A DNA stretch of 64,000 bases, taken from UHGV virus genome UHGV-0312702; one strand, written 5' to 3'. Below the pieces are notes generated by a model. The model was not told where the DNA came from. It did not search any database and worked only from the letters and a program-made list of their open reading frames with translations. Source of the stretch: a virus. Shown here in pieces: positions 10,728 through 12,722 of this stretch. Position 1 is the first letter of the stretch. Every line of letters starts with the position of its first letter. The position numbers were made by a program, and so were the translations under genes.

Positions 10728-11294
10728 TGAAAAGAGAGATTATCAAGTTTACAAATCCGGGTAGTTGTTGTCCGGTTCATGATAAGTATCCTAGTAATAC
10801 TTACAAGAATAGGCGCTCTATCAAGAAGAGGTCACTCTTTATTAAGAAAGAACATAGGCATGTGAGGCGGGTTGTTAAGCAAAATCTTCATAAAACTTTA
10901 TTAGAAAGTTGTTGACATAGAAAATTTGGTGAGTATACTGAGCAGCATAAACCAACGGGTACTCACCAGCATCACTTAAGAGTCTTTGAAAAGGGTTTTT
11001 AAGTGATGTAATGCGTGGCTCGGTGCAGTGAAGTATGGTGGGGTAGGGTATAATATGGTGCGGTAATGTATGGGTAGTTAGTCTCAGCTACATTAAAATG
11101 AGACTTACCTTTTTAAAAGGTCTTTGGAGAGGGTCTTTTAATAAGGTCTGGTGTAGTAGGGTTGGGCATGGTACGGTCCGGTGTGGTGTGGCACGGTATG
11201 GGTGGATGGTAGTAGCCACGTTAAAAATCTACCAAGTTTCTAAAGAGTCTTCTGTTGAGGGTTCTTTACAAACAACTTAACAATCAACTAAAGT
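10728..11294. repeat. noncoding GT-rich region A with 5-nt periodic tracts, hairpin and conserved boxes
   Basis: tracts approx 11003-11075 and 11146-11215 with G(G)T every 5 nt; hairpin ATCACTTAA...TTAAGTGAT approx 10971-11007; boxes shared with region B. Confidence 0.6.
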
Positions 11295-11897
11295 GTGGAG
11301 CTAAATGCTATGAAACTGTTAAATATCAAAATCACTGGTACTCGTCCTTTCCTGAGCCATAACGATACGCTGTCAGACCCATTAAACCCTCTGACAAAAT
11401 ATCACAAGTCTCTGTCCAGTAAGCGTAAAAAGACTGACGAAGACTACGCGCTCTTAGCAGAAAGCCAACTGGTAACTTCTTGTTACTACGATGAGCAGCT
11501 AGGTTTTGTTATGAACGGTGAGATGATTGAGGCTTGCATCAAGTCTGGTGCGAAACTCAACAAGCTTGGTAAGGTAATTGACCGAGCCATTATGCTGACA
11601 GATGTAGTCTTCCCAATGACTATCAAGAACTGTCCAGCAAACCCACAAGAACTTGCTAAGAATCCAGACTTTATCTATGCTAAGTCTGTTAAGATTGGTA
11701 CAGCACGAGTTATGAGCTACCGCCCAATCTTCCGTGATTGGTCTGTAGAGTTCGGTTTGATGTTCGATGAAGAGCAAATCACCAAAGAGGAACTTCTGAT
11801 GGTTCTGGAAAATGCTGGCAACCTTTGTGGTGTAGGTGATTGGCGTCCACGCTTTGGTCGTTTTTCTGTAGAAGTTATTTCAGAAGGTAACGTTTAA
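11295..11897 (+). CDS. hypothetical protein
   Basis: 200 aa ORF between the two GT-rich regions. Confidence 0.5.
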
Positions 11898-11899
11898 TT

Positions 11900-12340
11900 A
11901 TGAATACAAAAGCATTAGCAGCAAAGTTTAGTTACGGTGACACTGTATCACATTCTGAGATGGACACCTTCTTAGGTATTGTGAAGCCAACTTATCAAGG
12001 TGACATTGTTAAGTACGAAGATGAAATGAAGGCTTATGCGCTTACACGCCTAAACCGACTTGAGAAGTTTATTGAGAAGCTTCTTAAAGAAGAGAAGATT
12101 TATCTGGTTGCTTCAATGGGTGTTGGTTATCGTGTGGTTGAACCTAAGCATCAAGCAACTATTGCAAAACGTAAAATGTCTGGCAAGATTGGTCGAGCTT
12201 TAAAGCAAGCTACTCAAGCAATTGAGAATGTGAACACTATGGCACTTAGCCATCAAGAACGTTCACGACTAATTGAACAGCAAAACCATTTAGCTGCTAT
12301 GAAAGCTAACATTAACAAGCAACGTAGAAAACCTTTCTAA
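11900..12340 (+). CDS. hypothetical protein
   Basis: 146 aa ORF, basic C-terminus. Confidence 0.5.
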   Translation: MNTKALAAKFSYGDTVSHSEMDTFLGIVKPTYQGDIVKYEDEMKAYALTRLNRLEKFIEKLLKEEKIYLVASMGVGYRVVEPKHQATIAKRKMSGKIGRALKQATQAIENVNTMALSHQERSRLIEQQNHLAAMKANINKQRRKPF

Positions 12341-12722
12341 GTTGACTAGGTAGCCTCTTCGGAGGCTCCTTTTTAAAAGGTCTTTAAACAGGGTCTTTTA
12401 ATGAGGTATGGTGAGGTGTTGTATGGTAGTGTCTGGTCCGGTAGGGTGAGGTTCGGTCCGGTAGGGTCTGGTATGGGTAGTTAATCGGAGCTACATAAAA
12501 ATTCGATTACATCACTTAAGAGTCTTTTAAAAGGGTTTTTAAGTGTTGTGAGGTGATGTACGGTCGGGTATGGCTATGTCTTGTATGGTTTGGTATGGAA
12601 GGATGGCAGTAGCCTTATAAAAAATCTGCCAAATAAGCTATAAAATCTGTTGACAAGTCAGGTGTTATAGCTTATTTTTATACTCAATGCAATACAAAAT
12701 TTAATATAACTTTGAGGTCATT
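12341..12722. repeat. noncoding GT-rich region B (paralog of region A, modules rearranged)
   Basis: 5-nt periodic tracts approx 12405-12480 and 12549-12610; same boxes and hairpin as region A. Confidence 0.6.
12650..12678 (+). promoter_or_regulatory. putative sigma70-like promoter
   Basis: TTGACA at 12650-12655, 17-nt spacer, TATTTT; duplicated TATAAAA(A)TCTG boxes upstream. Confidence 0.4.

Follow-up and report, generated by a model that had tools for sequence, protein, structure and literature searches.

A very probable type II VIPR locus of the SUSP1 clade behind the 5-nt periodic G/T tracts of a wV8-like Felixounavirus

Background

What is the function of a sequence in which G and T recur strictly every 5 nt, in two related regions that flank a pair of genes? 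This question is raised by positions 10728-12722 of a stretch of 64,000 nucleotides (the window) from the virus genome UHGV-0312702, whose source phage is, by comparison with its relatives, a wV8-like Felixounavirus. A preliminary description of the locus had proposed an array of sites for an oligomeric nucleic-acid-binding protein, a replication origin or a packaging signal. Our results indicate that it is very probably a type II Viral Interference Programmable Repeat (VIPR) system of the SUSP1 clade, and that the four tracts with their 3' tails are the guide RNAs (vrRNAs) of the system. The feature that had been noticed is real but already explained, the VIPR locus being known as a system; what had been missed is that the variable NN dinucleotides between the G/T positions are a noncontiguous DNA-reading guide code and that the protein partner is encoded between the two regions.

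VIPR is a phage system of RNA-guided DNA silencing first described in 2026 preprints (bioRxiv 10.64898/2026.04.26.720920, 10.64898/2026.04.26.720927). Its components are Vipr, a minimal RAMP protein of about 20 kDa, the accessory protein Vap, and vrRNAs in which 9-16 GGY/NN pentamers precede a pseudoknot tail at the 3' end. Vipr protomers, one for each GGY repeat, assemble into a helical filament (5-6 subunits per turn) that sequesters GGY and presents NN. The NN string pairs with DNA of the pattern NNx, one base being skipped in each unit, and the resulting R-loop triplex, held by the protein, silences transcription. Small-RNA sequencing of SUSP1 detected four vrRNAs, each about 100 nt long; they co-purify with Vipr, silencing was observed in GFP and phage assays, and the biological effect is lost when NN is scrambled and GGY is kept (bioRxiv 10.64898/2026.04.26.720920, 10.64898/2026.04.26.720927). 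The expression of vrRNAs, their co-purification with Vipr, the filament and the silencing are taken here from those studies of the 98%-identical SUSP1 system; protein identities, repeat statistics, pseudoknot covariation, the association of tracts with Vipr in unrelated viruses and target matches were computed in this work.

Results and discussion

Four period-5 tracts that continue into pseudoknot tails

Phase-locked GT occurs 9-12 times out of 12 per 60 nt near positions 11019-11058, 11157-11181, 12412-12466 and 12554-12583, compared to a maximum of 5-7 per 60 nt in 20 shuffles of the whole 64 kb, and phase-locked GGT is counted 6-10 times in the tracts and no more than 3 times in the shuffles. 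The strict 5-nt G/T periodicity described previously is thus borne out, and so is the presence of two strand-asymmetric tracts per region, since four tracts were found, all of them on the plus strand (Table 1; sizes are those given by a tolerant detector). The phase-locked count revealed no further tract within the window and none on the minus strand. The string that had been quoted as an example (gtatg-gtagt-gtctg-...-gtatg) lies within approximately 12417-12474. The shared boxes and hairpin that had been seen in rearranged order are real as well: they consist of leader hairpins of two kinds and 3' tails of two kinds, which are combined differently in the four units. Only the designation of the two regions as noncoding needs to be amended: the tracts do encode vrRNAs, but 10727-10915 holds a 62-aa open reading frame (ORF) that matches phrog_5428 and is thus not obviously noncoding.

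In the NNGGY register, the position frequencies are G 0.76, G 0.98 and T 0.84 plus C 0.08 (Y 0.92), and 15 of the 16 possible dinucleotides are used at NN across the four tracts. The first two pentamers of vrRNA4 are derived from a hairpin arm. Without a change of phase, each tract passes into an approximately 34-nt tail able to form an H-type pseudoknot, in which stem 2 is AATCGGA/TTCGATT for vrRNA3 and the two stems are AAGG/CCTT and GGCAG/CTGCC for vrRNA4. In a set of nine distinct tails from the window, its relatives and Escherichia coli satellites, 9 of 11 pairs are changed on both sides and 87.9% of the cells are paired, a value as high as which was obtained in none of 500 shuffles, with slid controls pairing 28-41%. 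These compensatory changes argue that the tails are structured RNA rather than a DNA site. A scan of 9500-14000 against Rfam at E values up to 10 rendered four chance-level matches only (E = 0.37-7.8, far below gathering).

Vipr and Vap1 are encoded between the two regions

The 200-aa ORF that follows vrRNA2 probably starts at the ATG at 11310, giving a protein of 195 aa. In a search of PDB sequences, 191 of these 195 residues were identical to 36pp_D, 'SUSP1 Vipr protein' (E = 7e-128). Of the contact residues named in the structure paper, which hold G1, G2 and Y3 or touch the target DNA, those readable in the alignment are conserved in the window Vipr (H17, K33, R39, E71, M72, K82, K88, R138, C173, D177, W178 and R179); the residue given in that paper as 'T175' reads V175 both in the PDB chain and in the window protein. 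With an identity of 98% to the solved chain, the window Vipr is predicted to adopt the same RAMP fold, with an RRM core, a G-loop and a thumb. The 146-aa protein encoded next is identical in 145 of 146 positions to the product of the SUSP1 gene directly downstream of vipr, which has been named vap1 (bioRxiv 10.64898/2026.04.26.720920, 10.64898/2026.04.26.720927). Searches of the 200-aa and 146-aa proteins in Pfam, NCBIfam and PADLOC found no informative family, and those in PHROGs found function-unknown families only.

Table 1. Features of the locus and its borders, with positions in the window
Feature	Position	Strand	Remarks
DNA ligase gene	9591-10727	+	
62-aa small ORF	10727-10915	+	GTG start; CC..H motif; phrog_5428, E = 5e-29
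Putative promoter P1	10912-10939	+	sigma-70-type; TTGACA, 16-nt spacer, TATACT; 11/12 consensus matches
Leader hairpin H1, type A	10969-11009	+	ATCACTTAA...TTAAGTGAT; 19-pair stem directly 5' of vrRNA1 repeats; -18.2 kcal/mol, z = -6.6; kept in relatives
vrRNA1	11015-11105	+	12 pentamers (11015-11074); type X pseudoknot tail (11072-11105)
Leader hairpin H2, type B	11108-11146	+	CCTTTTTAAAAGG...CTTTTAATAAGG; -12.1 kcal/mol, z = -2.0
vrRNA2	11143-11233	+	12 pentamers (11143-11202); type Y pseudoknot tail (11200-11233)
Hairpin H3, type C	11236-11273	+	no tract follows; just before vipr ribosome-binding site; -13.6 kcal/mol, z = -3.0; kept in SUSP1
vipr	11310-11897	+	195-aa predicted Vipr (RAMP homolog); phrog_4652; alternative GTG start 11295
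vap1	11900-12340	+	146-aa VIPR accessory protein; phrog_5926
Terminator-like hairpin	12352-12375	+	GC hairpin AGCCTC-TTCG-GAGGCT (12352-12367), then T run; overlaps H4 5' arm
Leader hairpin H4, type B	12368-12406	+	-10.9 kcal/mol, z = -2.5
vrRNA3	12403-12508	+	15 pentamers (12403-12477); type X' pseudoknot tail (12475-12508)
Leader hairpin H5, type A	12509-12549	+	one arm mutated to TTAAGTGTT; -13.1 kcal/mol, z = -4.8
vrRNA4	12540-12630	+	12 pentamers (12540-12599); type Y' pseudoknot tail (12597-12630)
Promoter-like site P2	12650-12678	+	for next gene, at downstream locus edge; 10/12 consensus; kept in all relatives read
Next gene downstream	12723-13106	+	

By extension from SUSP1, the putative promoter P1 would drive vrRNA1, vrRNA2, vipr and vap1, with vrRNA3 and vrRNA4 coming after vap1, and each vrRNA would be about 90-110 nt long. 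The leader hairpins may be the processing sites at which individual vrRNAs are released, with RNase III as a candidate. Vipr, a minimal Cas7-like RAMP, would then cover the guide with one protomer per pentamer, flipping out and sequestering GGY and presenting the two N bases. The string of NN would pair with double-stranded DNA of the pattern NNx-NNx-NNx, skipping one base per unit, which in coding targets would usually be the codon wobble position, and the protein-held R-loop thus formed would block transcription.

Tracts and Vipr form a module found in many viruses

A comparison with 231 related phage records showed that the noncoding regions drop to 75-88% identity, whereas the 200-aa protein, present in only about 118 of the records, stays at 96-100%. 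Between phages the NN dinucleotides vary freely and GGY and the phase are kept, even though the flanking proteins of such phages are 98-99% identical; the length of the tracts ranges from 9 to 23 pentamers and is always a multiple of five. A search for the motif in related phages, which had been put forward as a check, found the tracts to recur with GGY and phase kept, as in Felix O1 (one unit and no two-gene block), BPS17W1 and KEP1 (two units each) and SUSP1 (one unit upstream and three downstream). The number of units in Felixounaviruses is 1-4, and about half of these phages carry only one or two. In wV8 the region is annotated only as "DR_4" direct repeats; the genome papers of Felix O1, wV8 and UAB_Phi87 list other direct or terminal repeats and nothing on these tracts, and a full-text literature search on 'GGUNN' and 'GGTNN' returned only noise. 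The upstream pair of vrRNAs is 99.7% identical to that of wV8, and none of 50,697 phage records matches the downstream pair (vrRNA3 and vrRNA4) at more than 93%. The set of guides is therefore a new combination in a system that is itself known.

An exact DNA scan of IMG/VR for (GGTNN)6GGT rendered at least 120 loci, and 60 among the matches listed are complex tracts with variable NN, often arrayed. All-against-all clustering of the ORFs in the listed loci produced one dominant family, which comprises the 200-aa ORF of the window and members in at least 39 loci, where it is nearly always encoded at a distance of 0-135 nt from the tracts, on the strand that carries them. Given this co-location, the tracts and a Vipr-family protein constitute one conserved module in many unrelated viruses. 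Two of the IMG/VR loci (L127, 3078-3225, and L128, on the minus strand) belong to another Vipr-bearing clade, with a tRNA T-arm-like tail (GGTTCGATTCC) and no pseudoknot, and five others (L013, L103, L110, L129 and L130) hold 5-7 abutting tracts of 10-14 pentamers each, with a phase shift between them. The record of phage pinkbiff (MN850603.1; L005, 2967-3015, and L006, 1-79) ends inside the downstream vrRNA array; because the array resumes at base 1, this end is an assembly break at repeats and no true terminus.

Three guides match the tape-measure gene of E. coli satellites

A BLAST comparison of the upstream region with 5,426 complete genomes of E. coli produced matches in 152 chromosomes, to the vrRNA2 tract and tail. 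The matches sit in islands of about 11 kb, that is, satellites that encode a serine recombinase, tape-measure and baseplate proteins and small genes. The satellite tape-measure gene is present in 478 of the 5,426 genomes and the vrRNA in 152 of them. The satellites (L132, 5000-16800; L134, L135, L136 and L140-L145) also carry an HNH endonuclease and a vrRNA of their own, and their integration sites include wrbA/ymdF, tonB/yciI, yecD and dinB. E. coli SCU-387 is among the hosts of such a satellite.

The four guides were scored as NN-x-NN-x... on both strands of 12 satellites, with 300 permutations of the order of units as control (Table 2). The best matches of vrRNA1, vrRNA2 and vrRNA3 are all located inside the satellite tape-measure gene, with two such sites at the same score for vrRNA2 (vrRNA1, L132, 8618-8652; vrRNA2, L136, 5408-5442, and L135, 6257-6291; vrRNA3, L132, 8411-8454). 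In the frame of the annotated coding sequences, the base skipped by vrRNA1, by vrRNA3 and at one vrRNA2 site falls on the codon wobble position. The vrRNAs of SUSP1, which served as a positive control, reach 27/32 and 21/22 on these satellites. Self-targets within the 64-kb window are at chance level for all four guides.

Table 2. Best scores of the four guides with different numbers of bases skipped per unit
Guide	1-nt skip	Skips 0, 2, 3	E. coli flanks	Own window	Permutations
vrRNA1	21/24	16, 18, 16	17	16/24	0/300
vrRNA2	19/24	17, 15, 16	16	16/24	0/300
vrRNA3	24/30	19, 18, 18	18	20/30	0/300
vrRNA4	18/24	17, 16, 17	16	16/24	16/300

We predict from these matches that three of the four guides would silence the tape-measure gene of satellites in E. 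coli chromosomes. In the SUSP1 clade, 18 of 20 guides with identifiable targets have been reported to match a satellite phage in E. coli genomes (bioRxiv 10.64898/2026.04.26.720920, 10.64898/2026.04.26.720927). The satellite tape-measure and baseplate proteins are 37-44% and 68% identical in amino acids, respectively, to those of the phage itself (window approximately 25682-28704, minus strand). Since the satellite tail genes are diverged homologs of the phage's own, the guides would discriminate the copy of the parasite from that of the phage, and since the predicted targets lie in satellites with copies of phage tail genes, the locus would be a weapon of the phage against its parasites. A single tape-measure site is hit by vrRNA3 in two satellite variants (L132, 8411-8454, and L145, 6829-6872), with 24/30 in each; the mismatches are largely complementary between the two, which suggests that a recombinant satellite with a much better match is to be found among the other genomes.

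Several points weigh against the assignment to VIPR or against the targets just described. Both sources on VIPR are preprints, and the transcript ends, the processing and the loading of Vipr proposed here are extrapolated from SUSP1. The 12 satellites scored come from about 480 satellite-bearing genomes, and in these 12 no significant target was found for vrRNA4, whose borderline site lies at the start of the satellite small-recombinase gene (core 16/18). In IMG/VR, the 1-nt-skip cores of vrRNA3 and of vrRNA4 had 0 exact matches each, the best matches of vrRNA2 and vrRNA3 (79-80%) are at or just under the 80% cut-off of the preprint, and at the other vrRNA2 site (in L135) the skipped base is at codon position 1. 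Finally, the leader hairpins, like H3, find no mention in the text of the preprints (bioRxiv 10.64898/2026.04.26.720920, 10.64898/2026.04.26.720927), and the satellites express their vrRNAs without such hairpins, from promoters of their own.

An orphan guide of Felix O1-type phages matches vipr

A tblastn search found neither vipr nor vap1 across the 86,155 bp of Felix O1, a phage that keeps one vrRNA between its ligase gene and the next gene (L007, 2575-2660). Felix O1 shares this state, no vipr or vap1 and one highly conserved vrRNA at that place, with at least 68 other Felixounavirus records, and at least 68 phage records carry the unit at 95% identity or more. With a 1-nt skip, the ten NN units of the Felix O1 guide score 20/20 on the vipr ORF of the window (11778-11806, codon positions 1-2, so that the skipped base is the wobble position), 20/20 on that of ASO1B, 19/20 on those of wV8, pinkbiff and SUSP1 and 18/20 on that of fjerdesal, compared to a best score of 15/20 in its own genome and a maximum of 17 in permutations. 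Moreover, in four aligned copies of the unit the substitutions are all in GGY or in the hairpin and none is in NN. This is the reverse of the usual pattern, and conservation of NN while GGY drifts would be expected from selection on a fixed target. The guides of BPS17W1, which also lacks vipr, gave only chance-level matches in the window (17/22 and 18/24).

It is possible therefore, although we would put the chances somewhat below even, that the orphan vrRNA is a guide-only counter-weapon, which in a mixed infection would load the Vipr of the rival and turn it on the rival's own vipr-vap1 operon. Targeting of other VIPR systems by vrRNAs in the Pseudomonas clade has been reported, as have guide-only satellites (bioRxiv 10.64898/2026.04.26.720920, 10.64898/2026.04.26.720927); an orphan guide of one phage against another may have gone unreported because the guides of the SUSP1 clade were searched there against E. 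coli genomes only. If true, the orphan guide would add a layer of "guide theft" to the conflict between phages, in which relatives without vipr may fight back with a single guide against it.

Other explanations of the tracts

It could also be thought that the tracts are RNA decoys or regulatory leaders which wrap a ring-shaped RNA-binding protein, in the style of TRAP and the trp leader, and titrate or regulate it without carrying sequence information. Indeed, 11-15 triplets are spaced here by 2 nt, the optimal spacing for a TRAP-type protein, many of the arrays among the IMG/VR matches listed have units of 11-13 pentamers, and the tracts would be the 5' and 3' untranslated regions of an operon that encodes their own binding protein. 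We consider this very unlikely, since the triplet is GGY and not (G/U)AG, neither of the adjacent proteins has a Pfam match to the TRAP family (MtrB, TrpBP), and the solved partner is a helical filament with 5-6 subunits per turn instead of an 11-12-mer ring; in addition, the NN dinucleotides find specific gene targets under a 1-nt skip, well beyond the permutation controls, and the Felix O1-type guide keeps NN while GGY drifts. The earlier proposal, an array bound by an oligomeric protein, consequently stands in its essential part, with one Vipr protomer per GGY in the 98%-identical SUSP1 system, but not in the ring shape that had been suggested by analogy.

Still less probable is a DNA-level element, either an R-loop-primed replication origin (cf. 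immunoglobulin switch repeats and the T4 and ColE1 origins) or a terminase or packaging signal. It is true that the strong promoter-like sequence at 10912-10939 points into a tract whose non-template strand is rich in G, the locus lies between the genes for DNA ligase and DNA polymerase and that for dihydrofolate reductase, and Felixounaviruses have direct terminal repeats of about 600 bp, whose position was not located here. Nevertheless, the same architecture is found in chromosomal satellites that do not replicate and, among the IMG/VR matches listed, in 39 unrelated viral loci beside a Vipr homolog; a number of units that varies from 1 to 4, with one or two in about half of the Felixounaviruses, would be odd for an essential origin or packaging site; the compensatory changes in the tails indicate RNA structure; a 5-bp period alternates between the faces of the duplex and is ill-suited to wrapping a terminase ring; and the end of the pinkbiff record in the array is an assembly break, not a terminus. 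Together with the specific targets of NN, these observations leave the origin or packaging signal of the preliminary description unsupported. A related idea, that of a packaging end in UAB_Phi87, was discarded, its record not being opened at real genome ends.

Tandem two-tier G-quadruplexes (GG-N3) in RNA or in a displaced DNA strand, acting as structural or regulatory roadblocks, are the least credible of all: GG every 5 nt for 10-15 units does conform to a G2N3 two-quartet pattern, but the first G is A or T in 24% of the units while the pyrimidine after GG, which a quadruplex does not need, is kept in 92%, the guanines are held singly, in syn, in protein pockets and not in quartets according to cryo-electron microscopy of the 98%-identical system, and the information content of NN would be left unexplained. 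These three hypotheses (the TRAP-like ring sponge, the R-loop origin and the G-quadruplex) were dropped after Vipr had been identified, and so were a sponge for tRNA CCA ends or anti-Shine-Dalgarno sequences, an array of primase sites and a Chi-like decoy.

Hairpins, promoters and neighbouring genes

The VIPR locus contains five hairpins of 17-19 pairs, one ahead of each tract plus H3, whose folding z-scores range from -2.0 to -6.6. An upper stem, GAGUCUUU/AAGGGUUU, is common to all five, and there are three different lower stems, so that hairpins of types A and B are identical in the upper stem and differ in the lower one. A boxA-like antitermination signal was considered for GGTCTTTAA, which resembles boxA, and was rejected, this sequence being the upper stem of the leader hairpins.

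The sequence of P1, which we infer to be the active promoter of the operon from its match to the consensus, is kept upstream of the first vrRNA in Felix O1, BPS17W1, KEP1 and SUSP1. An inverted repeat, GGTGAGTA...TACTCACC (10929-10936 and 10960-10967), brackets its -10 hexamer and the likely transcription start; it is conserved in the same four phages and may be an operator. The hairpin at 12352 was the sole terminator-like site in a scan of 10400-13000.

All the genes of the region are on the plus strand, in the order DNA ligase, 62-aa ORF, 200-aa ORF, 146-aa ORF and the gene starting at 12723, and genes for DNA ligase, DNA polymerase and dihydrofolate reductase make up the wider setting. The 62-aa ORF lies between the ligase gene and the vrRNA promoter, in a stretch of about 190 bp that SUSP1 and some Felixounaviruses have and wV8 lacks (the wV8 match begins at query position 195); as far as can be told, it is outside the VIPR system. 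Elsewhere in the window, 25 tRNA genes are clustered on the minus strand (40406-46032), as is typical of Felixounavirus.

Comparison with known systems

VIPR represents a newly described form of RNA-guided DNA recognition, with a gapped guide code that uses two bases of every five and reads two of every three in the target, and has been proposed as an ancestor of CRISPR effectors. The locus analysed here indicates that such systems can be recognised from raw sequence by the 5-nt periodicity alone, and that the targeting rule of the preprints applies equally to an independent phage whose guides are different. Lytic phages that are close relatives appear to carry different sets of guides against the same satellite gene, a situation comparable to the diversity of CRISPR spacers.

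The closest known system is that of SUSP1, with which the locus shares the gene order (ligase, vrRNA(s), vipr, vap1, vrRNAs), Vipr and Vap1 proteins that are 98% and 99% identical, the promoter, the leader hairpins, the types of tail pseudoknot, the GGY/NN pentamer design and the kind of satellite predicted as prey, one of E. coli whose tail genes are Felixounavirus-like. The two differ in layout (two vrRNAs upstream and two downstream in the window, one and three in SUSP1), in all four guide sequences and in the carrier, which is a Felixounavirus here and not a Suspvirus.

Class 1 CRISPR systems (Cas7 on crRNA, as in Cascade and Csm/Cmr) resemble VIPR, according to the preprints, in the polymerisation of a RAMP protein on a guide RNA, in a thumb that interrupts the guide-target duplex at regular intervals, in a conserved structured handle that caps the variable segment and in being directed at mobile elements. 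However, the period of VIPR is 5 nt, with 3 bases sequestered and 2 read, in contrast to 6 nt with 5 read, so that 2 of every 3 target bases are read; there is no repeat-spacer array, no Cas1/Cas2 and no protospacer adjacent motif (PAM); and each guide is a small gene of its own, hairpins lie between the guides, the system is carried by a lytic phage, and no CRISPR-type or other family was matched in Rfam. With TRAP and the trp leader of Bacillus, VIPR has in common a single-stranded RNA in which some 11 triplets 2-3 nt apart are each bound by one subunit of a homo-oligomer, but its triplet is GGY and not GAG/UAG, the oligomer is a helical RAMP filament and not an 11-mer ring, the spacers are informative, and the outcome is the targeting of DNA instead of attenuation.

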